DNA of 64,000 bases from positions 46,606 through 110,605 of IMG/VR virus record IMGVR_UViG_3300042363_001351. One strand, 5' to 3'. Below the pieces are notes generated by a model. It was not told the origin of the DNA, did not search any database, and worked only from the letters and a program-made list of their open reading frames with translations. This stretch comes from a virus (Duplodnaviria; Caudoviricetes). This document shows positions 8,838 to 53,905 of the stretch, piece by piece. Position numbers and translations under genes: made by a program. Each line of letters opens with the position of its first letter. Position 1 is the stretch's first letter.

Positions 8838-10154
8838 TCAACCTGATAATAATTGTAACGTATTGAACGTTTCATCCTCACTGCTAATAGAATCTCCCTC
8901 AGCCTGTGTAATAGTGAGAGTTGAATAATCAATTCTCATAGGCTGTGTATGGCCTCTTGGACCATATCTATTCTTCATCATACCCAATCTAATGATACCT
9001 AAATCTCTGTCTTCTTCGTTTTGAAAGATTGAAACAATTACATCTGCTGTAGCGGCTAGACCAACTGATTCTGAGATTGTTGCAAGGTCGGGATTGTCTG
9101 TATTAAATCCTGAACGATTTAATTGAGTTGCAGAAATTATAGGACAATTAAAAATATAAGACATTGCTCTAACCTGCTCTGTTACATTTTTTATTCTTTC
9201 ATAAGAGTTGGTACCAACAGACGAGTGCAACAAGTTAAGATAGTCGAGAACTATAGCGTGAATTGGTACGCCAGTATCTGTAAGCTTTTTAACAAAAGCC
9301 TTAAGCTGATTGGGTGTAATGGTTGAAGGTGGAAACTCCTTAATAAAGATTCTACCTTTATCCGCTTCTTTTTGATCTTTAATTGCCTGTCTAAGAGAAT
9401 GTGTGTTAGTAGCAAGATCTTTAAGAGGTATCTTACTTACGTTAGTACATATACGGCGCGCGTATAGCAGCTCTGACATCTCTAAGGTAATTAACAAAAC
9501 GTTCTTACCCTGATTAGCTATATTGGCAGCAATATTACCGAGAAAGATAGACTTACCAATATTTGTCTCACCGGCAAATACATACAATGATCTACCATTT
9601 TCAAGAAAGCCTCCATTTAAGGCATCATCCAACCACTCCCACTTGCTTGGAATAGCTTTTTGTACGTTACAAAGATCATCAATAAGAACTTCAATGTTAT
9701 TATACAAATCAAATCCTGTATCTGTAACAAGATTAATATTACACGACTTCTCAATCTTATCTAAAATCTGTGATGTATCGATATTACCCTTAGATATATC
9801 ACCGGCTACATCTAGCATCGTATTGTATACGGCCTTCTCTTTAAGAAATTGCTCTGTATTATCATAGAGTTCGTCTTTGTCGATATTTTTATCAATATCT
9901 TTTAACGACTCTACGAGATTTTTAAAAGACGTCCTTAGGTCATCCGTAGTTAGGTATGATTTTACCTCAGTAAGTGTTGGGAGCTTGCTACGCTTCTCAT
10001 AAAACTCTGAAATAATACTAAAGACACTAGCAATATTTTTATCTTTAAAATATTTAGGCTTAACATAGTCAGCAATAGATGCAAGATATGTAGAATCAAA
10101 AAGTGCTTTATAGCAAAGCACTTTTTCAAAATAATCATTATCTAGTTTACTCAC
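8838..10154 (-). CDS. 41: Replicative DnaB-like helicase gp41
   Basis: GETNIGKS Walker A, ITLEMSE, IKEFPP, LDYLNL, SATQLNR, KNRYG. Likely GTG start at 10154, 6 nt after TATAAT. Confidence 0.95.
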   Translation of the reverse strand: MSKLDNDYFEKVLCYKALFDSTYLASIADYVKPKYFKDKNIASVFSIISEFYEKRSKLPTLTEVKSYLTTDDLRTSFKNLVESLKDIDKNIDKDELYDNTEQFLKEKAVYNTMLDVAGDISKGNIDTSQILDKIEKSCNINLVTDTGFDLYNNIEVLIDDLCNVQKAIPSKWEWLDDALNGGFLENGRSLYVFAGETNIGKSIFLGNIAANIANQGKNVLLITLEMSELLYARRICTNVSKIPLKDLATNTHSLRQAIKDQKEADKGRIFIKEFPPSTITPNQLKAFVKKLTDTGVPIHAIVLDYLNLLHSSVGTNSYERIKNVTEQVRAMSYIFNCPIISATQLNRSGFNTDNPDLATISESVGLAATADVIVSIFQNEEDRDLGIIRLGMMKNRYGPRGHTQPMRIDYSTLTITQAEGDSISSEDETFNTLQLLSG

Positions 10155-10161
10155 AATTGTA

Positions 10162-10818
10162 TTATAACTTACCTTTCCATTTTTCAAGGAACCACCTTTG
10201 ACCCTCATTAAACTCCTCTGTAAACTCTTTCAATCCTGGAGAAGCATGAGTGATCATAATATCTGAAACGCCTAGTTTTAAACCTTCTTTATGGCATGAA
10301 AGACTGTAATCTAAATCATAAAAGTGAAATCCTGCAGGATTGGTTTCGTCGAATCTTACCTTTGTAAAAGCTGTTTTATTAATACAAAGAAAAACTCCAT
10401 CTAGTAGCAAGACCCTTTTAGGATAAGAGCCGAAAAACGTCATAGATTTATTTTTTTCATCTCCATGTGCTACTGCCCCATGGAGCTTACCAGAACCGAA
10501 TCCTCCCCCCATAATGTGCCATAGTGCAGGTTCCTGTAATTTACATTCCGTACTACCTGCAACTCCAATTACATCAAAAGATTCCATAATAGAAGGTAAT
10601 CTATACGCTAGATCTGATTCTATAATTACATCGTCATGACACAGGACGATAGCGTCAAAATTCTCCTCAATAGCAAAATCAATAGCCTTGTTATATACCT
10701 TAGGTAGAGATTCAGTGTTATTTTCCTTAAAAATAAAGCTATTATAAGCAGAGTGATTTTTATTTAGTAGGGTGTTCTTCCTACTACCTTTAGTTGCAGA
10801 AAAATAAAATATATTCAT
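10162..10818 (-). CDS. GT-A fold glycosyltransferase-like protein
   Basis: YNKAI, LCHDDV, LDGVFL, FHFYDLD motifs; start at 10818 overlaps the amidotransferase stop. Confidence 0.8.
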   Translation of the reverse strand: MNIFYFSATKGSRKNTLLNKNHSAYNSFIFKENNTESLPKVYNKAIDFAIEENFDAIVLCHDDVIIESDLAYRLPSIMESFDVIGVAGSTECKLQEPALWHIMGGGFGSGKLHGAVAHGDEKNKSMTFFGSYPKRVLLLDGVFLCINKTAFTKVRFDETNPAGFHFYDLDYSLSCHKEGLKLGVSDIMITHASPGLKEFTEEFNEGQRWFLEKWKGKL

Positions 10819-11480
10819 AAAAATAAAAATGGTGATTTTGTTTCGAAATGATTTACTACCTCCCAAGATTTGTAGTCCTTAAGCATTAAAATCGTACCCT
10901 CTGGAACCAGTTTAAATCCCTCACCTCCTAAGGTTGAAAAGTCGCCGTTATCGTTATAATGCAAGATGGAGCCCTGTCTTGCAATATAAACATCATTAGA
11001 GTCAGTATCAATCATACATAACGCAAAAGTACCTTCAAGTAAGCTTAACACTCTTTTAATTGTTTCGTGAGCAGGGCACTCGCCACTACACTCCTCTGTA
11101 AAGTGCTGTAGTAAATTTGGAATAACAGCTGTATCAACAGGATTAACATCCCAATCGATATGTTTAGCTCTTATTTCTTTATAATTTGTTAATACTCCGT
11201 TATGAACTACGGACCAGGATAGAGATTCGAAAGGATGCGAGGTATCATAAGACCAGGTTCGTTTCGCAGACGTAGGTGCTTGAACGTGTCCAATAAAATA
11301 ATTGTTTATATCGTCCAATTGAACATGATCAAAGTCAATAGTACCCTTCTTTTTAAGAACCATTTGATCACCACCACTATTAAGACCTATCAACCCTGAT
11401 GCAAAGTTACCTCTAGGTAGATTTGCTTGATATAGTACCTCAAACTTAGACGAATTATTAGCTCCAACTATAGCACACAT
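10815..11480 (-). CDS. Class II (Ntn) glutamine amidotransferase, stand-alone
   Basis: N-terminal MC(A)I nucleophile, RG..ASG, HPF, HNGVLTN, LEGTFA motifs. Confidence 0.85.
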   Translation of the reverse strand: MCAIVGANNSSKFEVLYQANLPRGNFASGLIGLNSGGDQMVLKKKGTIDFDHVQLDDINNYFIGHVQAPTSAKRTWSYDTSHPFESLSWSVVHNGVLTNYKEIRAKHIDWDVNPVDTAVIPNLLQHFTEECSGECPAHETIKRVLSLLEGTFALCMIDTDSNDVYIARQGSILHYNDNGDFSTLGGEGFKLVPEGTILMLKDYKSWEVVNHFETKSPFLFL

Positions 11481-11803
11481 TACTTTACAAGATATTCTCG
11501 CTTATCTTTTGGAATTCTCCAGAAAAAATCAATTTTTCCCGTAAGAATGTTTTTAGCAAGTGAAAAATCTGGGTATTCTATACCATCTTCCATAAGATAC
11601 CATGATTTTCTCTCCTTTTTAATCTTCTCAATACCTAGATTCTTAAGAGTCTTACTACCCAAGCCTTTAATCTTAAATAAATCGTTGTTAGATCTGAAAG
11701 GTCTATTAGCTATAATACGTTCAGCTGCTTTTTTACCTATTCCAGGAAGCTTGCAGATGCTATTAAATGACATTTCGTTAAAATCTCGCCAATTTAAGTT
11801 CAT
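11480..11803 (-). CDS. ComEA-like helix-hairpin-helix DNA-binding protein
   Basis: LPGIGKKAAERII..RPF....DL.KIKGLG tandem HhH. Confidence 0.85.
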   Translation of the reverse strand: MNLNWRDFNEMSFNSICKLPGIGKKAAERIIANRPFRSNNDLFKIKGLGSKTLKNLGIEKIKKERKSWYLMEDGIEYPDFSLAKNILTGKIDFFWRIPKDKREYLVK

Positions 11804-11807
11804 ATTG

Positions 11808-11815
11808 TATAAATA
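11808..11815 (+). promoter_or_regulatory. T4 late promoter TATAAATA
   Basis: Exact consensus, 6 nt before ATG 11822. Confidence 0.75.
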
Positions 11816-11821
11816 TAGTAT

Positions 11822-13306
11822 ATGAGTTCCTTTACAAAGCTACTATCTAGACTCACTTCTTTAAATGAAGCAAAAACTTCACCAATGGAGAAAATAATGC
11901 CCGGGTTTCAATCACAGGCTCGTGCTCTTGCTAAATCAAGAGGTGCGTCGTCTGGTACGAGAGAGGGTCGCCTAGCTATGTTGGGTATTTTGTTTGATTT
12001 GGATATAATCGACGATTCAATAGTTAGAATGTTTAAAAATGACCCTTCAGTAAGTAGAATGGTGGAGTATTTTGAAGCTAACGGTATTGCTTCGAAGATC
12101 AAAGCAAAGCGTGATGAAATTCAAGCTCACATTAAAGATCAACTAGAAAATAAAGTAAGTTTCACTACAGGTAATAGAACTGATTCGGCTCAACAGCGAT
12201 ATGAAGTCAATAAGCTTAATGATGAACTTAAAGCGGCGAAGAAGGTAGCAAGATTAGAGCGTAAAAAAGAAACAGCAGGAGCAATGTCATCTATGAGTCA
12301 AACAGTAGATATGTATGATGATCTTATTGGATCTCTTGAATCTTCTTATAGTAGCGAGTATATGTTGGAAATAGTTGCAGATAGAGATAGTGATCTAAAC
12401 GATATAACACAAATTGTAAAATATTTATCAAAGTTCGTAAATGCTGAAGATATAGAGGTTGAAGGAAGAAGCGTTGATGTAGTATTTGGTGCTTCTAGCA
12501 AGCTTGGTAAGATAATATCTAAAATGGGTATAGAGAAAATCGAAAGACAGATAGCTGATGATCTTAAGCCATATGGCGGGGCTGGTGTTATAATACACGA
12601 ACCAGATATTGATAAGAAAGACATGATTGGTAATATCAAGCCAGCTTCAATAGAGGATGAAGAATACTCTAGCGAGGAAGAAGATCAATTAGAAGGTAAT
12701 GATTATGAAGAATTAGCTCAAGATTATAGTTCTGGTATAAATCCTGAAGTATTAAAAGCGCAAAAACAAGCTCTTCGCTCTATCTCCGAGTCTACCGAAG
12801 TAACAGGTACCGCTGCTTACATAAACGAAAGTTTTGGTAAAACCCTAGCAGGGGTAGCGACTGCTGGAGCTATTGGTCTTGGTGGTTTAGGAGTAATGAA
12901 AGGTGTTAATAAAGCAACAGAATATATACAAAAAGCTTTTCCTAGCGATAAACAGCAATTTTTATCCAAAATTACTGATGAGGCAGATCGTAAGAAGATA
13001 ATCGACGGACTACAGGCTCTTAGAGATGCTGGTACTGACGCTCAACTATCAGGAAAATCTGATACAGTTGTGCGTATGAGACATAAATTTAGCGAAGTTG
13101 AAAGAGAAATGCGTAAAAAATACGATATACCTAACAACATTTACTTAAGTGAAAGTCAAGAGCCTACCACATCAACCTATCTTACTGAACAAGTAAAGAG
13201 TGATAGTGTTAGAAGATCACAACCTCAACAAAATTTATTATTTAAAGATAAGTACAAACCTAAAACCTCTTGGCAATTAGAAGAGCTTAGAAAATACGGA
13301 TTATAA
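11822..13306 (+). CDS. Putative head-packaged protein with multiple [IL]xE processing sites
   Basis: Late promoter; LNE, ISE, INE, LSE, LTE sites; acidic linker; Gly/Ala hydrophobic segment. Confidence 0.6.
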   Translation: MSSFTKLLSRLTSLNEAKTSPMEKIMPGFQSQARALAKSRGASSGTREGRLAMLGILFDLDIIDDSIVRMFKNDPSVSRMVEYFEANGIASKIKAKRDEIQAHIKDQLENKVSFTTGNRTDSAQQRYEVNKLNDELKAAKKVARLERKKETAGAMSSMSQTVDMYDDLIGSLESSYSSEYMLEIVADRDSDLNDITQIVKYLSKFVNAEDIEVEGRSVDVVFGASSKLGKIISKMGIEKIERQIADDLKPYGGAGVIIHEPDIDKKDMIGNIKPASIEDEEYSSEEEDQLEGNDYEELAQDYSSGINPEVLKAQKQALRSISESTEVTGTAAYINESFGKTLAGVATAGAIGLGGLGVMKGVNKATEYIQKAFPSDKQQFLSKITDEADRKKIIDGLQALRDAGTDAQLSGKSDTVVRMRHKFSEVEREMRKKYDIPNNIYLSESQEPTTSTYLTEQVKSDSVRRSQPQQNLLFKDKYKPKTSWQLEELRKYGL

Positions 13307-14050
13307 TTCTTTACAATTATTCTGTTCATATATCCCATCAAGCTTATCCTGTTGAAGATACTTGATGGGATCTCTATACCCAGCACTAATAAATCCTTGA
13401 ACGCGCATGCTACTTGAAGGTGTAGTTGCATCAGCAAGACCATCCTCACGATTACTATAGCATGTCCATGTGTTCTCGAACTGTACACCTAATTTCACAC
13501 CTTCCTGTACTATTTCTGCTTTCGACAAGGAGAGCAATGGAGCTTCAATGAGGATCCTATGTTGTCTGTTAAGAGCTGTTAGCTGATTTATACTATCAAC
13601 AAACTCTTGGCTTCCATCCCAGTAACCAGCTAGTGAGTCTACTTGCGCAGCACCGTACCAAACCGAGTCTGCACCGAGACTTTCCGCGTAAGCGCAGCAA
13701 ATTGTAATAAACATTTGATTACGAAACGGAACATATGAAACAGGTTGTGCATCACCAGCAATTTTACTTATATCAGGATTATCTATATCTAAGTTAGTAA
13801 GTGAAGACGTAGGAGAAATATCCTTAAGGTATCTTACATCCAATACCTTATTTGTAAATTTAACATTAGGAAATTTCTCTTCAAGATCCCATTTCTGAAG
13901 CGGTACACACTGCATTTCGCGACGATGCCTCTGACCGTAATCAAAAGTAACGGTATGAATTTCTTCATAACCTCTCTCTGCTGCCATAAAAAGAAGTACA
14001 GAACTATCCATACCTCCAGAAAACGCTAATACAAGTTTTTTATGCTTCAT
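13301..14050 (-). CDS. queC: 7-cyano-7-deazaguanine synthase (atypical C-terminus)
   Basis: SGGMDS PP-loop, FDYGQRH..E, SSLT, YVPFRN, GYWD, APL...SKAEIV, TWTCY. Confidence 0.92.
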   Translation of the reverse strand: MKHKKLVLAFSGGMDSSVLLFMAAERGYEEIHTVTFDYGQRHRREMQCVPLQKWDLEEKFPNVKFTNKVLDVRYLKDISPTSSLTNLDIDNPDISKIAGDAQPVSYVPFRNQMFITICCAYAESLGADSVWYGAAQVDSLAGYWDGSQEFVDSINQLTALNRQHRILIEAPLLSLSKAEIVQEGVKLGVQFENTWTCYSNREDGLADATTPSSSMRVQGFISAGYRDPIKYLQQDKLDGIYEQNNCKEL

Positions 14051-15134
14051 CGTTTATTTCTTCTGGTGTTTCTTCTTCAAGGTTACTATATGACCATTCT
14101 TTCTTGATTCTCTCTTCTAGTTTAGGTAGGATGGTTTCTTCCCAAAGCTTACTATCTTTCCGCCACGATTTGTAATACCCTAATTTAGTGCCGTCTTCAA
14201 GAGCATATGTCGATCCGTTCTGAATAACTACTCCAAGACCGACCGCAAGATCAAGCATGCCGTAATACCTGTCCAATCCGTTAGCAAAGGATAAGTACAT
14301 CTCACCTTCAAGATACTGTTTAATAAACCTGTTTTTACGTGTAAGAGCTCTAATAATAATTCCTGCATAAGATTTTTGACCTACGGCGAGTTCACCGTCT
14401 GTTGTTTTACCATCATCCGACTTCATAGGCTTGCGTGCAAGCTGTACTGTAACTGATGGAAGATAGACGCACGCCTTACCACCCGGCATATGTTTCTCAA
14501 TTGACGGAAACATTGCTGCGGGATCATCGTAAACATGATTAGTACAAAGAATAGTAGTCTGAGTAACAGCACCGAGGTTAGTACAAGTCTGCATTAGCGA
14601 TTTCATAGCACGAGCTTTTGTACCCATATCTGCAGAAGTACTATCTTTACCCATTCGAGCTAGCTCAAGTTCTGATTGAAGATTACCTAAAGAGTCGATC
14701 GCAACAATAAACTTACCCTCAAGTTTCTTTTCTTTAACAGATGTAAGAAATTTAAAGAGAGCGTTACGTGTTTGTTCGATACTGATACACGGTACATACT
14801 TTACCTTACTAATATCTAGACCTAGTCGTTGGGCTCCTTCAGGATCAATAGCATTTTCAGTATCAAAAATTACTGGTATAAGACCTTCTTGTTGAGCCTT
14901 AGCGAGAATCTTTTGTACAAATAATGATTTACCTGTCATAGATTCACCAGCGAGCATAGTAACTCGACCCTTAGGAATACCACCATGAATAGAACCAGAA
15001 ATGATAGCATTAAGAACATAGCTACCTGTATCAACCCAACCACCGACACGGCTTAATGTACTATCACTTAGATAAGTAGCAAAAGGATTTACATCATCGA
15101 TCTCATTTAAAGCGCTTAAAATATCTTTATCCAT
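14040..15134 (-). CDS. uvsX: RecA-like recombinase UvsX
   Basis: DTGSYVLNAIISG, GESMTGKS, FDTE, IDSLGNL, ADMG, TNHVY. Start likely 15134. Confidence 0.93.
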   Translation of the reverse strand: MDKDILSALNEIDDVNPFATYLSDSTLSRVGGWVDTGSYVLNAIISGSIHGGIPKGRVTMLAGESMTGKSLFVQKILAKAQQEGLIPVIFDTENAIDPEGAQRLGLDISKVKYVPCISIEQTRNALFKFLTSVKEKKLEGKFIVAIDSLGNLQSELELARMGKDSTSADMGTKARAMKSLMQTCTNLGAVTQTTILCTNHVYDDPAAMFPSIEKHMPGGKACVYLPSVTVQLARKPMKSDDGKTTDGELAVGQKSYAGIIIRALTRKNRFIKQYLEGEMYLSFANGLDRYYGMLDLAVGLGVVIQNGSTYALEDGTKLGYYKSWRKDSKLWEETILPKLEERIKKEWSYSNLEEETPEEINDEA

Positions 15135-15159
15135 AAAAAAATTATATACTATATTTTTA

Positions 15160-15375
15160 TTAATCAAGAGTTTGATCTTCAACTATAACGTGTTGAGCTA
15201 AATCTTTACTAATAGCAACCTTAGCTCCACACAACATACAAATTATATTTTTACCACCCTGTAGCTTTGTAACGTTGAGCTTTTCGCAAAAACCTAAATC
15301 TCTTAAATTATTACAACCACCACTTAAAGAGGTAATAATTACACGATCGTTATTTTTAACATCGTTAAGATTCAT
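15160..15375 (-). CDS. feoA: FeoA-family SH3-like protein
   Basis: 71 aa; L.D.....VII..L.G...LRDLG.....V.......GAKVAISKDLAQHVIV fits the FeoA pattern. Confidence 0.8.
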   Translation of the reverse strand: MNLNDVKNNDRVIITSLSGGCNNLRDLGFCEKLNVTKLQGGKNIICMLCGAKVAISKDLAQHVIVEDQTLD

Positions 15376-18674: not shown

Positions 18675-19889
18675 TCAACTATTCCATCTCTTGAGATATT
18701 TTCTCTCCGAAGAACCATAAGGAGTATTAAGAGCTTCAAGGTGGCATCCTATATTTTCTGGCAACTCTAAAAATCTTTGAGATCCTATGTGTCTAAACAT
18801 CTCAACATTACTATAATATTTTGGCTTATTTTTGAGCACCGCTTCAAGCTTTTGTTCCAAGTCATCACCGGTCTTAAACTTAAGAAACTCTGGAGCATTT
18901 TTATAGGTCTCCATGTCCTGGACCAAGCAGGGTAATCCCATAACGCACGATTCAATAAATTTAATATCAGACTTAGATCTGTTAAAGCTATTATCTAATA
19001 GAGGAGCTATCATAACCTGAGCGTTCAAATTAGCTATAAATCTTGGATAGTCTGCTAATGTCTGCCAGGGATGGAATTCTATTTTACGCTGTTGAACATA
19101 TTTTAGTAGAGGTGGTGGAAATGCTCCTACAAATACCCACTGATATTTATCAATAGTCTTTTCTACTAATTTTAATACATGTGAAAAATCATCTACACCT
19201 CCGTTTTTATTTTCAACATCATAATGAGCACCTGAGCCTGTATATAACACACGAGGTTTTTTCTTATTTTTATCATAGGTGTCGTAAATACGCCTTTTAT
19301 CATATACGTGGCCCATCCAAGAGTACGGTACAAAGTTAGGAATTACAGTTATTTCTTTTTTACCGGTGCGTTCTTGATATAGCTTCTTCATGTAATCACA
19401 GGTAACTGTAACCTCGTCACACATATTGATAATCTCAATACAGTTATTGCGAATTTCATCATTATCAAAAGCGAATTTAAATTTATTATAGTCAGGAATA
19501 TCCTCTCTGAATACAACGTCGTCAACTTCGTAAATTAACTTAAATTGATGATCTTGCTGTACTTGTTTAAGGTATTTAATAAATTCTTTTTGATCAGTAG
19601 AGGCTTGCCTCTGTACCTTAACTGATTTTACTCCTGTATACCATCTTGGATCAAACACCATGGCGGTAAGAGACGTAGAACAACCTACTCCGGTTTCGTT
19701 TATATGTTTTTCAGGCCATAGAATTCTCCAAAAACCACAGCCAGAATAATCTGCAAGATAATTAACATAGCGTGGCAATGAAAGCTCTCTAGGCTGCTCC
19801 GGAGCTACTATTTTCTGCGGTGAAGCTTGTACACCGAAGGGATTTACGAAAGGAACGGCAAAAGGATTAGCAAAAGGCTGCGCAAACAT
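18675..19889 (-). CDS. GT-B fold glycosyltransferase
   Basis: GCGFWR, YEVDD, VIPNF, APLLDNSFNRSKSDIK..E motifs; start 19889 follows TAAATA. Confidence 0.8.
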   Translation of the reverse strand: MFAQPFANPFAVPFVNPFGVQASPQKIVAPEQPRELSLPRYVNYLADYSGCGFWRILWPEKHINETGVGCSTSLTAMVFDPRWYTGVKSVKVQRQASTDQKEFIKYLKQVQQDHQFKLIYEVDDVVFREDIPDYNKFKFAFDNDEIRNNCIEIINMCDEVTVTCDYMKKLYQERTGKKEITVIPNFVPYSWMGHVYDKRRIYDTYDKNKKKPRVLYTGSGAHYDVENKNGGVDDFSHVLKLVEKTIDKYQWVFVGAFPPPLLKYVQQRKIEFHPWQTLADYPRFIANLNAQVMIAPLLDNSFNRSKSDIKFIESCVMGLPCLVQDMETYKNAPEFLKFKTGDDLEQKLEAVLKNKPKYYSNVEMFRHIGSQRFLELPENIGCHLEALNTPYGSSERKYLKRWNS

Positions 19890-19905
19890 ATGTGTTATAT
19901 TTACA

Positions 19906-21714
19906 TTAGTAATCCAAATAGTCAATACGCCTCGTTATACCATTTTGCTTTTCTAGGAAAATAACATCTCCAGTAACCGCTTTAACGGACTCCTTTCTGT
20001 GCGATATAACAATAGAACATTCATCTAAGGTACTAACCCTTTCCTTGAGTATCTCAGTAATTAAGTCAATGCCCTTCTCATCAAAAGACGAATCAAATAA
20101 TTCATCGTATATCGCTATATTGTAACTCACACCTCCTTGCATTCTTCTAATATCAGAAAATGCGAATAAACAAGCAAGATCTATAGATTTACGCTCTGCA
20201 CCTGAGAAATTAAAATAAGAGCATATTTTATTTTTATCATTAACAATCTGCTCTTCAAAATATTCATCAAATACGCATACAGAATTTGAATCTAACTTTT
20301 TAAGATAGTAATACAACTTACTATTGAGAAGTTCTAGAAGTTTGTTTACTATATAAGATTTAACACCCTCTTCACTGATAACAAACTTTACTATATCTAG
20401 AGTGCTTAGCTGTTTAGATATAGTTGAAACTATATCATTTACTTGATTAAGTCTGCTTTGTGTCTCATCAATTAAATCATCAAACTCTGTCTTACTTTCA
20501 TTTAGAGTTTCTATATCTTGTATAAGCTCATCTTGCCACTTTGTCAACTGAGTGATACGATTTGTAATATTTTCGTTATATTGAATCTTTAAGCTAGTCT
20601 CATTTATTAATTTGTTTTTTTCCTGAATAGCTTTTTTAATTTTTAATTTTTGACTCTCTACTTCTTGTATCTTTACGCTAATTTCTTCTACTTCTTTTGC
20701 TATAAGAATCATTTCATCTTTAAGCAATAGCTTTTCTTTATGAATATTCTCTTTATCGTGTTCTTGAATTGGTCTCAAACAAACTGGACAACTATCACTA
20801 TCTGTTCCAATCTTCTTATAAATTTCTTTCTTGTGTATAATAGTAGCTTTTTTATTAGAAGTGTCTCCTACTAATAAATTTTTTAAATCATCATTTTCGA
20901 TAAGTTTATCCTCTAGTTTATCTATTGTGAGTTGAATATCATCAATGTTTTGAATATCTGAACTCTCTTGTAGCTCTTTATTTAGCTTTTCTAGTTCAAG
21001 AGCGTTAGAGGATTGTCTTTCCAAATATAACTTACGCTTGTCTTCCTTTCTTTCAATTAATTTTTGCTTTTGATTATTATAATTTTGAAGTGTTTTATTA
21101 ATTTCATCTAACTTTGCATAATTAATATCATATTCTCTTTTAATATCATTATATTCCTGTCTCAGTGTCGAAATCATCTTACTAAAGACCTCCATTCCGA
21201 AGATATCTTCAATAAACTTACGTTTCTCGACTTTATTTTTTGCCATAAACGGAATAGTATTATTAACCGTCATGATAACACAGTTTTGAAAAATAGCAGG
21301 TGACGCACTCAGAACATCACATATGTATTTGGTGGTATTAGCTATGCTGTCGCGTGTTTTATCTACTCCGTCTTTATAAACACTTACTTTAGTAGGTGTA
21401 AGTGTACGTACAATATGAAATTTATTTTTACCTTTAGGTGAATCTATATTAAATTCTAATTCTACTTGTGTTTTTCCACCTGTTATATTATTTGTAATAA
21501 GATCTTTTTTAATTTCTCTTAAAGTCTCGCCAAAAATAGCAAAGTATATAGCATCAGCCACAGTAGATTTACCTACTGCGTTCTGTCTATCGGGTTTATC
21601 TTTATTATTACCTGTTATAAGGTGTAATCCCTTTCGAAAATCAACCGAAACAACCTCATTACCAACCGATAGAAAGTTTTGAATTGTTATTTTAGTAAAT
21701 GTTACCTTTTTCAT
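19906..21714 (-). CDS. 46: Recombination ATPase gp46 (Rad50/SbcC-like)
   Basis: QNFLSVG, NAVGKS, coiled coil with CPVC hook, FSGAE signature, YDELFDSS. Confidence 0.95.
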   Translation of the reverse strand: MKKVTFTKITIQNFLSVGNEVVSVDFRKGLHLITGNNKDKPDRQNAVGKSTVADAIYFAIFGETLREIKKDLITNNITGGKTQVELEFNIDSPKGKNKFHIVRTLTPTKVSVYKDGVDKTRDSIANTTKYICDVLSASPAIFQNCVIMTVNNTIPFMAKNKVEKRKFIEDIFGMEVFSKMISTLRQEYNDIKREYDINYAKLDEINKTLQNYNNQKQKLIERKEDKRKLYLERQSSNALELEKLNKELQESSDIQNIDDIQLTIDKLEDKLIENDDLKNLLVGDTSNKKATIIHKKEIYKKIGTDSDSCPVCLRPIQEHDKENIHKEKLLLKDEMILIAKEVEEISVKIQEVESQKLKIKKAIQEKNKLINETSLKIQYNENITNRITQLTKWQDELIQDIETLNESKTEFDDLIDETQSRLNQVNDIVSTISKQLSTLDIVKFVISEEGVKSYIVNKLLELLNSKLYYYLKKLDSNSVCVFDEYFEEQIVNDKNKICSYFNFSGAERKSIDLACLFAFSDIRRMQGGVSYNIAIYDELFDSSFDEKGIDLITEILKERVSTLDECSIVISHRKESVKAVTGDVIFLEKQNGITRRIDYLDY

Positions 21715-32042: not shown

Positions 32043-32059
32043 AGTATGACTAAGTTCCT
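32043..32059 (-). promoter_or_regulatory. AGGAACT-N4-CATACT promoter motif
   Basis: 5 nt upstream of ATG 32037. Confidence 0.55.
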
Positions 32060-32726
32060 ATTTAGAGGCCATATCAATAAACTTATAAAACTCAGTTCGA
32101 GTCTTTTCATCCTCCATAAAATCACCTGTAAGTTTAGAAGTAATCATATAACAACCTTCATGCTTAACACCGCGATGACATGCGCAAGTATGTTGAGCTT
32201 TAATAACCACAGCAATACCGCGATTTTTTTCACATACCTGATCAATAGCTTCAGCAATTTGCTTAGTAAGACCTTCCTGAATTTGAGGTCTACGAGCGTA
32301 AAATTCTACAATACGATTGAGCTTGCTGAGACCTATCACCTTACCATCGAGAGAGGGAATATAAGCAACATGCGCAACTCCTGTGAAGGCAAGGTGATGG
32401 TGAGAACAGAGCGATTTAACAGGAATATTACACTGAGCAATTACACCATCATAACCGTCAGTAGGAAAAGCGGTTACCGACGGTGGGCTATTATAACATC
32501 CTGAAGCAATGTCATTTACAAAAGCCTTTGCCACACGCATAGGAGTATTAGAGGAATTAGGATCGTTTCTCCAATCAAAGCCAAGCGCGTCTAGATACTT
32601 TTCATAAGCCTTAGCAGCTCTTTTTATAATAGATTGCTTTTCTCTATCTGTACGCGGAGCATTTCCATTAGCGTTAGGAAGCTTAACTTCTTCTCCTGTT
32701 ACATCATGTTCATCTAATTCATCCAT
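32058..32726 (-). CDS. folE: GTP cyclohydrolase I
   Basis: [37 protein letters not shown]. Start 32726 follows TTGATT-N17-TATAAT. Confidence 0.96.
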
Positions 32727-32777
32727 AAGAAAATTATAATATAAGGATAAAGCTAAATCAACCATAAATATATACAT

Positions 32778-33674
32778 ATGAGTAAAATAACTCAAAAAGA
32801 ATTACTTCAGGAGGGGTTTTTAGATACTATTAGACAAGCAGCTGGTAAGATTACAAAACCGCTTGCGAGAGTAACTGCAGGAGCCTTAGGTGGTGTTGGT
32901 AAGGCTGCTTTGCAGGTAGGTAAAGACATAGTGACAGGTAATACTGGAGCAACTTTATCAAATGTAGCGAGACAAGGCGTAAGCGGTGCAGTAAATGCAT
33001 ATAAATCAGAACGCGATAAGCAGATTATTGCTTCACCGGAGAGATTTGTAGAAAATGAATTAAAGACAAAGTGGAATAATACCTTCAATCCCAACTCAAT
33101 AAAAATTACATCTTCTCAAAAAGAAGAAATAGGTAGAACAAGCGTTGCTAGACATTCGGAAGAAACACCAAGGACGTTTGTATATTTTGAGGCTTCAAAA
33201 TACAATAAAACCACTGGAAATTCAACACAGCAAATCGGAGGAGTAACTCAATTAAAGGGCGTTGCAACGGTAATTAAGGGTAGTGATGGTAAGTTTAATA
33301 TAATTGAAATTAAGGATGAAGATGGTAATACTATAAATCAAGGTGCACAACAAACTATACCTAATTTAAATGATTTAATGAATAAGTTAAACTTTAACAT
33401 TAATAACTCAACCGCCGGTAAATGGGCTGTAGCTCTAAAGAGATCTTTCCGAAATGCATTGCCAGATCCTAGAAAAGATATAGATAAACTAATACCCGCA
33501 GCAGTAAATAATGATAATTATGTACTTACATCAGCTGATGTTACCATCTTACGTCAATACCTTAAAGATGAAATGTTAATCTCTGAAAAAAATACTCAAA
33601 AAGATTTACTAGTACAGTTGAAATTGCTAAATGACTCATATAAAAGTATTAATAATATTTTCTATATCAAGTAG
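32778..33674 (+). CDS. Putative head-packaged/ejected protein
   Basis: LLQE-GF leader followed by a G/A-rich amphipathic helix; late promoter at 32763-32770. Confidence 0.55.
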
Positions 33675-34487: not shown

Positions 34488-35123
34488 ATGAATTATAAAT
34501 CCACAAAAGTACTTAATCTTGGATCTTGTGCATTTAGGCAGCCAAATGCCGCCTTTAACAGACAGGATGCCGGTAACAACTCACAAAGGTGTAGTAAGTT
34601 GCACGGTTATCGTTTAAAAGCTAAGTTTTGGTTTGGATGCACGCACCTAGATGATAAAAATTGGGTTCAAGATTTTGGTGGATTCAGACCAATTAAAGAA
34701 CTTTTCGCATATCAGTTCGATCACACTACATGCTTATCATACGACGATCCACTATTACCTCTGTTTGAAGAACTTGACAAACAAGGTGGCCTTGATCTTA
34801 GAATTATGCCAGAGGGAACTGGTATAGAAAAAATTGCTAAATTCTGCTGTGAAAAAATGCAAGAATTTGTTAATAACCAGAGTAATGGTAGGGTGTGGGT
34901 AGATAAGGTAGAGGTTTTTGAACATGAGGAAAACTCTGCAATCTTTACCCCTCTGTATGACGTGCTTTGCTCTCCGCAAGAACCTAAACAAGATGAAGTT
35001 GCATCATTAGCCTCTGAACCAATTACTGAAACAGCACCGGCTATTAATACTAATGCCGCACCTGTAGGTAATCATGTATCTCAAGGTATGGGCAATCCGT
35101 TTGCTGGTACTAGCTGGGGCTGA
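34488..35123 (+). CDS. queD: 6-carboxy-5,6,7,8-tetrahydropterin synthase
   Basis: CSKLHGY, W..DFG, FDHT, VFEH.ENSA. Confidence 0.88.
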   Translation: MNYKSTKVLNLGSCAFRQPNAAFNRQDAGNNSQRCSKLHGYRLKAKFWFGCTHLDDKNWVQDFGGFRPIKELFAYQFDHTTCLSYDDPLLPLFEELDKQGGLDLRIMPEGTGIEKIAKFCCEKMQEFVNNQSNGRVWVDKVEVFEHEENSAIFTPLYDVLCSPQEPKQDEVASLASEPITETAPAINTNAAPVGNHVSQGMGNPFAGTSWG

Positions 35124-35934: not shown

Positions 35935-36696
35935 ATGAGTACGGATTATAATACAGAGACTATCTTTTTAAGTGATGATCTTGTCTTTTACACACTAGAA
36001 GGGGAAGGTGAGTATATCGGTCAACCTTCTGTCTTTATGAGGATGTCCATGTGTAATTTGAGTTGTTCCGGGTTTGCGTCAAAAGATTCTCCTAATGGTT
36101 GTGATTCGTTTATTTCTTGGTCAGTAAAGAATAAGAAGTCATTTAATGAAATCTTCGAACTCATGGAGACCGGTAATCACGTCACTCACTTGCGTGAGGG
36201 TGCTATTTGGAAGCTAACTGGTGGTGAGCCTATGATTCAGCAGAAACAATTGCTTAAATTTGTTGAGGCGTTTAGAGATCGATATAATTTTACACCTCGG
36301 ATCGATTTCGAGACTAATGCTACTTTAATGCCTGATGAGCGTTGGGTTACAGAATTTAATGCTACTTTTACTACCTCACCTAAACTTACCACTAACGGCG
36401 ATCCAGAGGAAAAGACCTATAAGCCAGAAGTACTGAAATGGCATAAAGATCATAACTCTGGATTCAAATTTGTAATTAGCAGATCAGAAGACATTGAAGA
36501 AATCTGGCGTAAATATGTAAACGATAAGGAAAATATTAACGTACCACTTAGTCGTGTATGGTTTATGCCATGTTGCGGGTCACGCGAAGAGCATATTGAG
36601 AAAGCTCCAGCTGTTGCAGAATACGCTAAAGCAATGCATGTTAATTTTAGTCCTAGACTGCATCTTTTGTTGTGGAATTTAGCTCTCCGAGTATAA
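35935..36696 (+). CDS. queE: 7-carboxy-7-deazaguanine synthase (radical SAM)
   Basis: FYTLEGEG..G.PSVF.R..CNLSC...CDS, TGGEP, ETN, SPK, PRLH. Confidence 0.92.
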   Translation: MSTDYNTETIFLSDDLVFYTLEGEGEYIGQPSVFMRMSMCNLSCSGFASKDSPNGCDSFISWSVKNKKSFNEIFELMETGNHVTHLREGAIWKLTGGEPMIQQKQLLKFVEAFRDRYNFTPRIDFETNATLMPDERWVTEFNATFTTSPKLTTNGDPEEKTYKPEVLKWHKDHNSGFKFVISRSEDIEEIWRKYVNDKENINVPLSRVWFMPCCGSREEHIEKAPAVAEYAKAMHVNFSPRLHLLLWNLALRV

Positions 36697-36701
36697 TTGT
36701 T

Positions 36702-37334
36702 ATGAGAAATGTTAATCTTCCTAAATCTCGAGTTTATATCCGTAAAGACGCTTTTGGTGGTAGTGTAGAAGAATTTGAGCCAGCATGGCTGGTATCTGTT
36801 AGAGCATTAAGAAATCGCCCTTTCGTATTTCAGGTATGGGTAGATGCTTATGCGGCATGCTATGATAAAATACCACCTCAATGTGTATACTGGCGCGAGC
36901 CTGAAACGTATCATAACGCTTTACCTCTACATAAAATTCAAATGTGGGAATGTTTAAGTGGATCTGTAGAGCTCTGGCAAAAATTACAACTAGTTGATGT
37001 ACCTATGCTTGTTAATCTTGGTAAAGGAGCTCAGCCGATGACAGGTCACTACTGGTTTACTCTTGACTTTCTTCCTGAGAATAATTCTTTAGGAATGCTA
37101 GATGTAGGAGATGTCGAGCTGTTAGAAGAACATAAAGAGGGTAATGTAATTAAATTAGAGAATGGACAAATAGCTATTTACCCAAATAATAGACTCAAAT
37201 GGTTACCTATATCACTAACACCGCAAAGTGCTATAAGCGAGATTCCTAATTGGGAGGTAGCAACAAATGAAAAATGGGATGACTGGTGGGATGATTCGAA
37301 TGAAATTCTTGGTGATGCTAAGTGGGCATATTAA
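36702..37334 (+). CDS. Conserved-looking phage hypothetical protein
   Basis: Trp-rich; YWFTLD, EHK, GQIAIYPNNR motifs. Confidence 0.65.
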   Translation: MRNVNLPKSRVYIRKDAFGGSVEEFEPAWLVSVRALRNRPFVFQVWVDAYAACYDKIPPQCVYWREPETYHNALPLHKIQMWECLSGSVELWQKLQLVDVPMLVNLGKGAQPMTGHYWFTLDFLPENNSLGMLDVGDVELLEEHKEGNVIKLENGQIAIYPNNRLKWLPISLTPQSAISEIPNWEVATNEKWDDWWDDSNEILGDAKWAY

Positions 37335-37351
37335 CTTTTTTTAGTTATATA

Positions 37352-37954
37352 ATGAAAGCCTATAAGACTCTTGTATTAAATAAGTATTATTTTCCTGTTG
37401 CTGTTGAAGGAGTGCAGAAAACATTTGGAAATATATTTTCCGGTGCGGTAATACCTCTCGATATAACATACGAAGAGGGAGATGATGCTAGTGTAAATCT
37501 AGAGAATGTAGAGTACTTTACTACGGTCCCTGGGGTTAAAGATTGGCTATTGTTACCTATAAGGCCTTATGATGATTATCTGCACACAGCGCGAGGACCT
37601 GTAAGAATTCCTCAGGTAGTAATCTGCACAAACTTCGATAGAGTTATTTTTAATCGCGTACAGTTTCCTACTAAACATAATATCTATAAAAGAGATAATT
37701 ACACTTGCGTATATACAGGTAAAAAATTAACTAAAGAAGAACTTAGTGTTGACCATGTAGTACCTAAAAGTAAGGGTGGTAAAGATACGTGGGAGAATCT
37801 TGTAACGTGTGACAGACTTCTAAACTCTAAAAAAAGTAACAAGTATTTGAGTGAGGTAGGTCTTAAGTTAAGATATAGACCATATAAACCAAATAATGGA
37901 CTTACTTTCGATATTTACAAAGATGAATGGTCTTCTTTCTTGAAAAATTGCTAA
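37352..37954 (+). CDS. HNH endonuclease
   Basis: RDNYTCVYTG, SVDHVVP.SKGG..TWENLVTC...N..K. Confidence 0.88.
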   Translation: MKAYKTLVLNKYYFPVAVEGVQKTFGNIFSGAVIPLDITYEEGDDASVNLENVEYFTTVPGVKDWLLLPIRPYDDYLHTARGPVRIPQVVICTNFDRVIFNRVQFPTKHNIYKRDNYTCVYTGKKLTKEELSVDHVVPKSKGGKDTWENLVTCDRLLNSKKSNKYLSEVGLKLRYRPYKPNNGLTFDIYKDEWSSFLKNC

Positions 37955-37972
37955 TAGCGCATATATAACAAT

Positions 37973-38704
37973 ATGCGCATAGCTTTCTCAGGTACAGCAA
38001 ATACAGGCAAAACAACTCTTATTAACAATTTCTTAGCTGTTTGGTCCCAGTATACAACTCCAGAAAAAACCTATAGGGATCTTATTAAGGAAAAAAACTT
38101 AACACATTCCTCATCTACTACAACCGATACGCAGTGGGACATTCTTAATTTTATGATTGATCAGCTTCAGTCATATGATAAAAATTCTAAGGTGGTATAT
38201 GATAGATGCCCGTTGGATAATTTAGCTTATACGCTATGGGCTCACGATAAAGGAATTGAAGGATTTGATAAGAAATATGTTGATAAGTGCATTACCTTAA
38301 CAAAGGAATCCATGAGACATTTAGATATTATCTTTTTATTAGAGTATGACGGTTCAATTAAAGTAGAGGATGATGGATTAAGAGATGCAAATGTAGAATA
38401 TATAAAAGAAATAGATAACATCTTTAAAGCGTTATTTGCTCAATACGAACAAAACTATGATGCTGATATATTTTTCCCTAAGGATGACTCTCCTGGTATA
38501 ATTGTATTACCTACTAATCCACAAAGACGTATTGATATTATTTCAGAATATATTAATACCGATGGCGAACTCTACGGAGACGAACACTCCTTATTCAACC
38601 CAGAGAAGCTGGATGAGCTCGAAACTCTTGTTAGACAGCAAAAAGCTGCCCTAGAACAAGAAGAGAAGGAGAAAGAGCTGTTTAAGAAGTTTGGGTTAAC
38701 TTAA
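37973..38704 (+). CDS. P-loop NMP-kinase-like protein (AAA_28 type)
   Basis: GTANTGKTT, YDRCPLD..AY, EDDGLR. Confidence 0.75.
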   Translation: MRIAFSGTANTGKTTLINNFLAVWSQYTTPEKTYRDLIKEKNLTHSSSTTTDTQWDILNFMIDQLQSYDKNSKVVYDRCPLDNLAYTLWAHDKGIEGFDKKYVDKCITLTKESMRHLDIIFLLEYDGSIKVEDDGLRDANVEYIKEIDNIFKALFAQYEQNYDADIFFPKDDSPGIIVLPTNPQRRIDIISEYINTDGELYGDEHSLFNPEKLDELETLVRQQKAALEQEEKEKELFKKFGLT

Positions 38705-39934: not shown

Positions 39935-40780
39935 ATGGTTGAAAGGAAAGAAAAGATAGGCGTTGGTATTATTACTTGTAACAGACCTGATTATTTAATT
40001 GGTCTTTTAAATTCTTTAGTTCAATGCGAAGATATTATTGATGAACTAGTTATAATCAATGATGGTAACCCTGTTAAAGATTTCAAATCTCCTCTTAAAA
40101 ACTATAATTGGTTGGATAATCCTGAAAATATAGGGGTAGGTAAATCGAAAAATAAAGCTATGCAACATCTCTTAGATAAAGAATGTGATTTTATCTTTAT
40201 TATAGAAGATGATATGATTATATTAGACCCTACTATATTTACCAAATATATAGAAGCATACAAGTTAAGTGGTATACATCACTTTAACTACGGGCCAGGT
40301 TCACCATTTAATCGTAAACAGGATATTCAATTTGATTTACATAATAGACATCTACTCAAGCAAGACACGGAACCTAATCCAAAAATGGTATTGGATTATA
40401 AAACAGTAAAGGTTTCCTTGTTTGAGCATACTGTAGCGATGTTTTCTTTCTTTACTAAGGAGGTACTCGAGAAAGTTGGTCTTATAGATGAAAGGTTTTA
40501 TAATGCTTGGGAGCATGTTGATCATACATATCGCATTATAAAAGCTGGATATCATCCGCCATTTTGGTGGTTTGCAGATTTATATGACAGTCATAAGTAT
40601 CTTACAGAAGCTCCCGGAGCTATAGATAACTCTTCCATTGCCAATAAAACAGAACAATGGGAAAAAAATGTTTATGGTGGGAGAGAAATATATAAGCAGA
40701 AACATGGTCACTATCCTAATCAGCCACCTTATACCTCGAAGGATGAGGTTATTAAAACAATCAAACATTTAAAAAAATAA
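39935..40780 (+). CDS. GT2 glycosyltransferase
   Basis: IITCNR, INDG, N.GV...KN, IEDD, DERF..AWEH.D. Confidence 0.85.
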   Translation: MVERKEKIGVGIITCNRPDYLIGLLNSLVQCEDIIDELVIINDGNPVKDFKSPLKNYNWLDNPENIGVGKSKNKAMQHLLDKECDFIFIIEDDMIILDPTIFTKYIEAYKLSGIHHFNYGPGSPFNRKQDIQFDLHNRHLLKQDTEPNPKMVLDYKTVKVSLFEHTVAMFSFFTKEVLEKVGLIDERFYNAWEHVDHTYRIIKAGYHPPFWWFADLYDSHKYLTEAPGAIDNSSIANKTEQWEKNVYGGREIYKQKHGHYPNQPPYTSKDEVIKTIKHLKK

Positions 40781-41367
40781 TGATATTATCTAAAAACGAA
40801 CTAGACAGTCAAAATATTGAAGAATTTGAAGATCTCTTACAAGAATATAAAAAGATATCTCCAAAATATTTTATGGAGATTGGATCGATGTACGGCTGGT
40901 CTTTGCAGCATTTTATTCATTATGGTGAATATGAATCTACTGCTGTAGTAGTTGACTTGCCGGTTAGACATTTCGTAGGACCGGGAGACTGGAGAGTAGA
41001 AAAACAGGAATATAATTATAAAAATGAATGGCCTAAATGGGCCAAGGAAAGGAAATGTAAGTTGTTTTTAATTCCAGATAGTTCGCTTAAGCAGACTACT
41101 CTGCAGAAAGTACGAGACATTTTAGGTAATAATAAGCTTGACTTTCTTTTTATAGATGGAGATCATAGGTATGAAGCTATTAAGTCTGATTATGAAATGT
41201 ATTCACCTCTTGTAAAGAAAGGTGGTGTAGTGGGATTTCATGATATAGGCGAAAAGGAAGAAGGTGGCGGTCGTCGGTTTTGGCTAGAAATAAAAGATAA
41301 GTTTCAGCACAGAGAAATCTTAAAAGATAAAAATAAAGAAAAAGGCATAGGTTTATTATATGTTTAA
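40780..41367 (+). CDS. Class I SAM-dependent methyltransferase
   Basis: MEIGS..G, DFLFIDGDH.YE...D, GG...FHD. Confidence 0.85.
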   Translation: MILSKNELDSQNIEEFEDLLQEYKKISPKYFMEIGSMYGWSLQHFIHYGEYESTAVVVDLPVRHFVGPGDWRVEKQEYNYKNEWPKWAKERKCKLFLIPDSSLKQTTLQKVRDILGNNKLDFLFIDGDHRYEAIKSDYEMYSPLVKKGGVVGFHDIGEKEEGGGRRFWLEIKDKFQHREILKDKNKEKGIGLLYV

Positions 41368-42181
41368 AATTGCCGTCGGTACAAATTTATTTGGTTCATG
41401 CCCTAGACAAGATCTAGGGATACAGAGTTTACTTAAGTGTAAAAAAATACTGGGTGATCAAATTGATCTTTTTAATGTACAATTTGCTAACGGTAAGGAC
41501 TTAACAGAGCATAGCGAAATAAAGACATTAAAATGTTTAACAAAAACCTCTAAAGAAGTATGTAATGGTGAGAGAGAGCTTCCAATAGTTCGTGAAATAT
41601 TCGATAAATTAGCTGATCTAGGGTATGATTATTTTTGCTTTGTTAATTCTGATATAATTGTTACCCCTAATTTTTTTAAAGAAATTCTAAAAGAAAATCA
41701 TGAAGCTTATATTGCTTCGCGTTTAGCTATCGAAGGAGATATACAGGATTTAAATTTTACTATTTCTATAAACGAATCAAAAGGTAAGGTAAGAAATAGC
41801 CATTATCAAGTTTCTGGTTTCGACGCTTTTACTATAAAAACTGATTGGTGGAAGGAAAATAGACTTATTTTCCCTGAGTACGTATTTGCTGTAGTATATT
41901 GGGACACGCATTATGCTACATTATTGCTAAAAAATGCAGATACATATATGCAAAATAAAAAACCAACATTATTTCACATAATACACGAAGATAAGTCCTC
42001 GTCACAGTGTGAAGAGTTCTTTTATAATCAGGATACTTTTTCGAAAAAGTATACAGAGGATTTTAATCTATGGCACAGATTTTTATTTGAAGTTCTTCTA
42101 AGAAGAGGTATTAATAATAACTATGTGTATCCTTTTCCTGATGAGATAGAAAAACAATATCAATATTTTAAATCAAACTAA
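41360..42181 (+). CDS. GT-A-like protein
   Basis: FCFVNSDI, GFDAF, WD, H..H. Confidence 0.6.
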   Translation: MFKIAVGTNLFGSCPRQDLGIQSLLKCKKILGDQIDLFNVQFANGKDLTEHSEIKTLKCLTKTSKEVCNGERELPIVREIFDKLADLGYDYFCFVNSDIIVTPNFFKEILKENHEAYIASRLAIEGDIQDLNFTISINESKGKVRNSHYQVSGFDAFTIKTDWWKENRLIFPEYVFAVVYWDTHYATLLLKNADTYMQNKKPTLFHIIHEDKSSSQCEEFFYNQDTFSKKYTEDFNLWHRFLFEVLLRRGINNNYVYPFPDEIEKQYQYFKSN

Positions 42182-43059: not shown

Positions 43060-43061
43060 TT

Positions 43062-43913: not shown

Positions 43914-43916
43914 TCT

Positions 43917-44723: not shown

Positions 44724-44724
44724 A

Positions 44725-46587: not shown

Positions 46588-46602
46588 GCGATTGATACTT
46601 AT

Positions 46603-46619
46603 AGGAACTGCTATATACT
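46603..46619 (+). promoter_or_regulatory. AGGAACT-N4-TATACT promoter motif with TTGATA -35
   Basis: 6 nt upstream of ATG 46626. Confidence 0.6.
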
Positions 46620-46625
46620 TTCTTT

Positions 46626-47954: not shown

Positions 47955-47975
47955 AAATACTCGTGTAGTTTTTAT

Positions 47976-48929: not shown

Positions 48930-48971
48930 GTAGTATAAATTTTTTGTATATAAAAAACTTTTAAAAATATT

Positions 48972-53884: not shown

Positions 53885-53905
53885 ACTTATATATTAAAAT
53901 ATGTT

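Follow-up and report, generated by a model that had tools for sequence, protein, structure and literature searches.

A QueC, amidotransferase and glycosyltransferase cassette in uncultured aquatic T4-like phages: probable part of a dispersed DpdA3-type 7-deazaguanine DNA-modification system

Introduction

Which modified base, if any, would be made by a phage that keeps a deazaguanine gene, an amidotransferase and a glycosyltransferase together in its replication region? The question is raised by an uncultured virus of the Caudoviricetes (IMG/VR record IMGVR_UViG_3300042363_001351), of which positions 46,606 to 110,605 were analyzed; this stretch of 64,000 nucleotides is referred to here as the window. 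Between uvsX and gp41 it carries queC and the genes of a helix-hairpin-helix (HhH) protein, a class-II (N-terminal nucleophile, Ntn) amidotransferase (GAT) and a GT-A fold glycosyltransferase (GT). The initial annotation had proposed that a split Gat/QueC enzyme makes an amidino or amido deazaguanine, which GT may glycosylate, with the HhH protein as a DNA-targeting subunit. Our comparison with related viral contigs leads us to favor, with some reserve, a different reading, in which an uncultured aquatic T4-like phage modifies its DNA with 7-deazaguanine by a DpdA3-type system whose genes are dispersed, the cassette being one part of it. Read in this way, the system departs from the known DpdA3 type in three unexplained features, namely GT, a QueC that has lost its zinc site and a GAT in which a conserved Arg is replaced by Gln.

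A conserved gene order between uvsX and gp41

The four genes reported by the initial annotation were confirmed on the minus strand, with one late gene of opposite polarity inserted among them. The features of the locus, with the matches that identify them, are:

13301 to 14050, minus strand: QueC, 7-cyano-7-deazaguanine synthase family (PF06508 1e-50; TIGR00364)
11480 to 11803, minus strand: HhH protein, 107 aa, ComEA-like (HHH_3 1e-10; ComEA models)
10815 to 11480, minus strand: free-standing class-II (Ntn) amidotransferase GAT, 221 aa, with a Met-Cys start (GATase_6 1e-8; GATase_7; GlmS and PurF N-terminal domains)
10162 to 10818, minus strand: GT-A fold glycosyltransferase GT, 218 aa (Glyco_tranf_2_5, PF13712, 1.5e-8)
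11822 to 13306, plus strand: late gene, 494 aa, between QueC and HhH-GAT, no family
14040 to 15182, minus strand: flanking UvsX recombinase (RecA Pfam; phrog_97 2.5e-61)
8838 to 10208, minus strand: flanking gp41/DnaB-type replicative helicase (DnaB_C 6e-29; phrog_19 7e-77)

The order UvsX, QueC, variable late gene, HhH (in most loci), GAT, GT and gp41 was seen in every related locus that is long enough, and it is repeated in well over 100 contigs (IMG/VR, JGI and Tara), down to ∼53% identity for GT and 42% for GAT. This arrangement is far beyond chance. All related loci form one deep-branching T4-like clade from marine and freshwater samples, whose UvsX and major capsid protein share at most 34% identity with those of any cultured phage in the collection. 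GT and GAT always accompany que genes in these relatives, an outcome that does not refute the initial proposal, but the co-occurrence of the four genes is not phylogenetically independent, because all cases belong to one clade.

The preQ0 pathway is complete in the window and relatives carry DpdA3

The window encodes three further enzymes of preQ0 synthesis at 32 to 37 kb:

32058 to 32795, minus strand: FolE, GTP cyclohydrolase I, first preQ0 step (PF01227 4e-50; phrog_2197)
34488 to 35123, plus strand: QueD, 6-carboxytetrahydropterin synthase (PF01242 5e-13; TIGR03367; phrog_2389 1e-30)
35935 to 36696, plus strand: QueE, 7-carboxy-7-deazaguanine synthase, radical S-adenosylmethionine (SAM) enzyme (Fer4_12; QueE NCBIfam models; phrog_2076 1e-42)

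Together with QueC, these make the preQ0 pathway complete within the window. The contig from which the window comes is a 110.6-kb fragment (52% complete). It stops in a homolog of the 171.5-172.4 kb segment of G010, a near-complete relative (196,877 bp, 93% complete). The capsid gene would come next, and QueF would follow after a further ∼8 kb. All open reading frames (ORFs) of G010 were compared with known proteins. Besides the cassette, G010 keeps FolE, QueD and QueE, and it encodes a bimodular QueF (Pfam QueF_N and QueF; 5e-68 to the QueF of Pseudomonas phage pf16).

G010 also encodes a 268-aa homolog of phiST CGPG_00065, which was confirmed to be the published DpdA3. The G010 protein shares 47% identity (1e-63) with a protein annotated as DNA guanine transglycosylase in Flavobacterium phage immuto_2-6A (hereafter immuto), and 46% identity with proteins of Campylobacter phages CP220 and CP21. 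In its AlphaFold2 (AF2) model, with a predicted local distance difference test score (pLDDT) of 91, the modelled fold had only tRNA-guanine transglycosylases among its top 50 PDB matches. DpdA is the signature protein of deazaguanine DNA modification, and DpdA3 leads to complete guanine replacement, the DNA of immuto being entirely fdPreQ1 (Hutinet et al., 2023; PMC10516641).

DpdA3 does not stand alone. Three related contigs extend into the region, and in each of them it was observed together with QueF, a DpdN-like formyltransferase (PF00551) and a small P-loop protein. In G001, the closest long relative of the window (96% identity in UvsX and 93% in QueC), and in G006 the four genes are adjacent and in the order found in immuto; in G010 all four are present, with DpdN apart from DpdA3. 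A fourth contig (G011) stops right after the capsid gene, as the window's contig stops close to it. These observations support the proposal that the cassette is part of a 7-deazaguanine DNA-modification system.

The P-loop gene, annotated as 'thymidylate-kinase-like' (AAA_28), accompanies DpdA3 in immuto, in CP220 and in this clade. It adjoins DpdA3 in CP220, and DpdN lies between the two in immuto, G001 and G006; the DpdA3 block is near the capsid gene both in CP220 and in this clade. The gene looks like an unrecognized conserved partner of DpdA3. In ∼14 fragmentary IMG/VR contigs (L262-L275) DpdA3, the P-loop gene and QueF occur with no formyltransferase in between, as if a sister group did not formylate preQ1 or gave it some other modification.

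A single-sequence phmmer search with the phiST DpdA3 gave no match on the window's contig, beyond whose end the gene is expected. A candidate for an undetected DpdA was a 298-aa ORF at 32778-33674, in the gap between FolE and QueD; it was dropped, as it matched no family and is not conserved in G010.

A predicted route to a preQ1-derived base

We propose that FolE, QueD and QueE would make 7-carboxy-7-deazaguanine (CDG) and that QueC would convert CDG to preQ0, with GAT as its putative glutaminase subunit, feeding ammonia to it in the manner of the two domains of asparagine synthetase B. QueF, from a gene beyond the end of the contig, would reduce preQ0 to preQ1. DpdA3 would swap guanine in phage DNA for the deazaguanine, and the DpdN-like formyltransferase would yield fdPreQ1, which would probably replace most or all G. 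Such replacement would guard the DNA against host nucleases. GT and the HhH protein are conserved neighbors, with at most a putative link to the pathway. The DNA of the clade thus most likely carries a preQ1-derived base, fdPreQ1 being the best candidate from gene content. By extrapolation from its relatives, the phage of the window would itself carry DpdA3, DpdN and QueF.

The immuto fdPreQ1 system is the closest known one. It shares with G001 and G006 the order DpdA3, DpdN, P-loop ('thymidylate kinase') gene and QueF; the G010 proteins are 47% (DpdA3), 44% (DpdN), 32% (P-loop) and 46% (QueF) identical to those of immuto. In contrast with immuto, the pathway of the clade is dispersed over three genomic sites, its QueC is zinc-less and is accompanied by GAT, HhH and GT-A proteins (immuto has no GAT or GT homolog), and the DpdA3 block is not on the window's own contig.

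If the proposal is correct, a preQ1-type deazaguanine probably takes the place of G in the packaged DNA of a T4-like clade that is very widespread in marine and fresh waters and has no cultured relative, and this would affect both its resistance to host nucleases and its recovery in amplification-based or nanopore metagenomics.

QueC has lost its zinc site throughout the clade

The PP-loop of the window's QueC (SGGMDS) is intact. Three of the four zinc-binding cysteines are replaced, and only the first Cys is left, as judged by alignment to PDB entries 3bl5 and 2pg3. The segment LADATTPSSS, which stands in place of the CxxC..C zinc motif, is invariant or nearly so in 68 clade sequences. SGGMDS or SGGADS is found in 65 of these 68; the other three have SGGCDS, a gap, or a match truncated by one residue. 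The QueC of phages F86 and pf16 retains all four Cys.

G010 carries a single QueC, on which its QueF depends for preQ0; therefore, the clade QueC can probably still form the nitrile despite the loss of the zinc site.

GAT is likely to be a partner of QueC

GAT keeps Cys2, the RG, SHP and HNG motifs and the Asp when aligned with the GlmS/GFAT N-terminal domain. In an alignment of 126 clade sequences with the N-terminal domain of GFAT1, the MC start with its Cys nucleophile, HNG with the Asn-Gly of the oxyanion hole, and D(T/S), the Asp of which contacts the amino group of glutamine, are conserved. The Arg that holds the glutamine carboxylate, which we take to be the conserved Arg73 of GlmS and PurF, is a Gln in GAT, where it is part of an invariant GHVQAPT motif; the same replacement is found in pf16 and F86. 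The fused Gat-QueC of Vibrio phage R31B retains the Arg.

Within the window, QueC and GAT are separate genes 1.8 kb apart, with the opposite-strand late gene and HhH in between. In three other phages, namely Vibrio phage F86 (KVP40-like), Pseudomonas phage pf16 and jumbo Vibrio phage 2.275.O, the gene immediately following QueC encodes a GAT homolog, and QueF is near the pair in each of them. Furthermore, phrog_10428, a PHROG of Gat-QueC-like fusions, spans both proteins of the window (GAT matched at profile positions 100-186, QueC at 256-473). Because QueC with a free GAT occurs in four phage lineages, GAT is likely to be functionally linked to QueC, as was initially proposed. No longer fused form of GAT was found in our search, which is weak evidence.

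The product of the pair is a separate matter. In Queuovirinae (phage 9g type), a Gat-QueC fusion leads to dG+ (archaeosine) as a DNA nucleoside. Like phages with such a fusion (e.g., Vibrio phage vB_VhaS_R31B), the clade pairs a class-II amidotransferase with QueC and also has a DpdA and the other enzymes of preQ0 synthesis. It differs in that the two proteins are encoded by separate genes, in that GAT has Gln where the fusion retains Arg, and in having DpdA3 rather than DpdA1; its relatives have QueF and DpdN, so that a preQ1 derivative is expected, not G+. QueF always accompanies QueC and the free GAT, in the clade relatives as in the other three lineages, and for this reason the pair is read as supplying preQ0 for reduction. 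GAT would then most likely serve QueC in preQ0 synthesis, as part of a glutamine-dependent QueC, rather than in archaeosine formation. The amidino or amido (archaeosine-type) product of the initial annotation is thus disfavored, QueF and the DpdN-like formyltransferase of the clade pointing to preQ1 and fdPreQ1.

F86, pf16 and 2.275.O have a GAT of the same ∼200-aa subfamily as the clade (MC..., GHVQAPT, HNG, C-terminal FxT..P..FL), associated with QueC and with QueF nearby. There, in contrast with the clade, GAT directly follows a four-Cys QueC and has no GT or HhH next to it, and the putative transglycosylase is of another type (440-457 aa, no known family), presumably DpdA2. QueC followed by a free Ntn amidotransferase is therefore a recurrent, uncharacterized two-gene module of four phage lineages, always found with QueF, and the recurrence suggests a glutamine-dependent form of preQ0 synthase.

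Alternatively, GAT might partner GT and not QueC. The two would then have no part in deazaguanine chemistry and would make or transfer a glycosylamine or amino sugar, destined for a protein or glycan. In keeping with this, GAT and GT are always adjacent and share an ATGA overlap, QueC is set apart by the opposite-strand gene, the best GAT scores were obtained with the amidotransferase domains of GlmS and PurF (enzymes that aminate sugar or ribose), and the phage invests heavily in sugar chemistry. However, the same GHVQAPT subfamily directly follows QueC, with no adjoining GT, in the three other lineages, and no GAT-GT fusion was found. One 432-aa GT fusion (P0133) was examined as a candidate and rejected, its N-terminus being TPR. 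We give this alternative a small chance.

Does the glycosyltransferase act on the deazaguanine?

The modelled structure of GT (AF2, pLDDT 97.4) has a GT-A fold. Foldseek matched it with probability 1.0 to UDP-binding majastridin (template modeling score 0.68) and to other GT-A enzymes; after majastridin, the PDB matches were Sulfolobus turreted icosahedral virus (STIV) A197, and then protein O-glycosyltransferases and a nucleoside glycosyltransferase. Its HDD (DxD-type) motif is invariant in 153 sequences, and its isoelectric point (pI) is near neutral. No homolog of GT was found in 50,697 cultured-phage records; hence none of the other phages examined that have QueC+GAT or DpdA3 encodes GT. 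Scans of IMG/VR and metagenome contigs recovered GT homologs from this same clade alone. The wider family comprises ∼3,100 cluster representatives, whose multi-domain members carry TPR repeats and GT41/OGT-like domains, as enzymes that glycosylate proteins typically do. Only one cellular homolog (39% identity) was retrieved with its context. It comes from a single-cell genome of Marinamargulisbacteria, where its gene is a lone one next to groES-groEL, and neither que genes nor GAT are present.

Like the T4 alpha- and beta-glucosyltransferases, GT is encoded by an early or middle gene of the replication block; T4 beta-gt is located next to uvsX. The T4 enzymes have a GT-B fold, whereas the clade GT is a small GT-A protein of family PF13712. 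T4 and other phage DNA glycosyltransferases need a hydroxylated pyrimidine, provided by a ThyA homolog or Tet/JBP. Neither a ThyA-family nor a Tet/JBP gene was found in the relatives, and only ThyX is present, so that a role of GT in the glycosylation of hydroxymethyl- or hydroxy-pyrimidines is unsupported.

The linkage of the genes was examined at the level of their boundaries. The stop of HhH and the start of GAT have one base in common (TAATG), and in the ATGA at the next boundary the start codon of GT overlaps the stop codon of GAT. The translational coupling initially reported for the three genes is consistent with these overlaps, except that GT starts at 10818 (218 aa), as in all GT homologs, and the ORF 10162-10866 overcalls its start. 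UvsX and QueC also overlap, by 11 nt; overlap is thus a habit of this genome and weak evidence of common function.

The HhH protein is small and basic (pI about 10) and probably binds DNA. G010 lacks it, as do at least a dozen further contigs in which GAT-GT is retained. HhH is thus dispensable within the clade, and the proposal that it is a required DNA-targeting subunit is weakened.

The reading of the initial annotation can be weighed on this evidence. On that reading the deazaguanine produced by a split Gat/QueC would be of the amidino (archaeosine) or amido (ADG) kind, and GT would attach a sugar to it in DNA, to which HhH would tether the enzymes. In favor of it, most clade members keep the overlapping HhH, GAT and GT genes together, and HhH is basic and ComEA-like; a search for hydroxymethylation or hydroxylation of pyrimidines, which could offer GT another acceptor in DNA, found no such route; and the large sugar-nucleotide cluster of the phage could supply a donor. 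Set against this, reduction and formylation of preQ0, not its amidation, are indicated by QueF and the DpdN-like formyltransferase of the relatives; the three other lineages with QueC and free GAT all have QueF and none has GT; HhH is missing in G010 and other members; the fused relatives of GT bear TPR and GT41/OGT-like domains; the nearest cellular homolog retrieved stands alone beside groES-groEL; and gene overlaps here also join functionally unrelated genes. We therefore consider this reading improbable. Adjacency of GT to the cassette is confined to one clade, and it is more likely that GT glycosylates something else, e.g., a protein or glycan.

A narrower version, in which the side chain of the deazaguanine receives a sugar from GT (possibly with help from the zinc-less QueC and the Arg-to-Gln GAT), is in our judgment also unlikely. 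The sugar may in that case be placed on the aminomethyl group of preQ1, or a glycosylamine may be captured by QueC as an N-glycosyl amide. If true, this would be the first glycosylated 7-deazapurine in DNA, and it would occur in one of the more widespread groups of uncultured aquatic T4-like phages. The loss of the zinc site, the Arg-to-Gln GAT and the always-adjacent GT-A are handles for further deazaguanine chemistry, if any exists.

Points that weigh against the DpdA3-type reading

Several observations count against the DpdA3-type system that we favor. First, DpdA3, QueF and DpdN are not on the window's contig and are extrapolated from relatives. Second, GAT lacks the Arg that binds glutamine, so that its glutaminase activity is uncertain and its substrate may be another; moreover, immuto makes fdPreQ1 without any GAT, and GAT is thus dispensable for the pathway. 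Third, the zinc-less QueC is clade-wide, and its product could differ from preQ0. Finally, GT is a core gene that always adjoins GAT, and no other route to a DNA glycosyl acceptor was found.

A search with the Pfam TGT family (tRNA-guanine transglycosylase, PF01702) gave no match on the window's contig or on 13 related viral contigs, G010 included. We rejected this negative result as evidence that DpdA is absent: the Cellulophaga phage phi19:2/phiST control showed that PF01702 also misses a published DpdA3, and hmmscan gave no match for the DpdA2-type candidates of pf16 and F86. That the que genes merely raise queuosine or preQ in host or phage tRNA, with no DNA modification, is very improbable: queuosine precursors are classic tRNA-modification intermediates and no TGT is detectable with Pfam, but the control of that search fails, the relatives have a TGT-fold DpdA3 homolog with DpdN and QueF as in a phage with fully modified DNA, and no queA, queG or queH was noticed among the ORFs scanned with family libraries.

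These data suggest that (i) the cassette is, with moderate probability, one part of a dispersed DpdA3-type system; and (ii) GAT most likely assists QueC in making preQ0.

Other genes of the window and its relatives

The late gene between QueC and HhH (11822-13306) matched no family in profile scans. A T4-late-type sequence, TATAAATA, sits 6 nt upstream of its ATG. The gene is variable over the clade, and in many relatives only residues 447-494 (the C-terminal ∼45) are kept.

The end of QueE overlaps an ORF matched by phrog_3704 ('ferredoxin'; window 36672-38704 region), the product of which could be a reductant for the radical-SAM reaction. An HNH endonuclease gene and a paralog of the AAA_28 P-loop gene follow it in the same region.

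In G010, the ends of the contig (1-7 kb and 189-196 kb) are copies of each other at 74-86% identity and include a truncated second DpdA3 at 3-359. Probably the genome is circularly permuted and the assembly ran past its starting point, with sequence of two strains combined. Between QueF and DpdA3, positions 9531-14087 of the G010 174001-193000 piece encode a homolog of the CsgG curli channel, a FecR-like protein and a CHASE2-adenylate/guanylate cyclase. Curli genes were reported in pelagimyophages (PMC7029224). From its CsgG gene the clade may be pelagimyophage-like, which is a lead only, as no cultured phage is close.

A large sugar/glycan cluster occupies window positions 39935-54490 on the plus strand. 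It encodes two GT2 glycosyltransferases, a SAM methyltransferase, a 633-aa nucleotidyltransferase fusion, a DegT/E1-type enzyme, a 4,6-dehydratase, an HpcH aldolase, a short-chain dehydrogenase/reductase (SDR), a dehydroquinate synthase (DHQS)-like cyclase, a thiamine diphosphate (ThDP) enzyme, an epimerase and a DUF366 protein. This cluster could supply an unusual nucleoside diphosphate (NDP)-sugar to any of the glycosyltransferases of the phage.

A second putative glycosyltransferase, of 416 aa, is encoded beside the DNA polymerase (18675-19925, minus strand). It matched phrog_7162 ('glycosyltransferase', 2e-27) and no Pfam family, and it has weak homologs in one Streptomyces phage and in coliphages of the phi92 and rV5 types, where most genomes have two copies.

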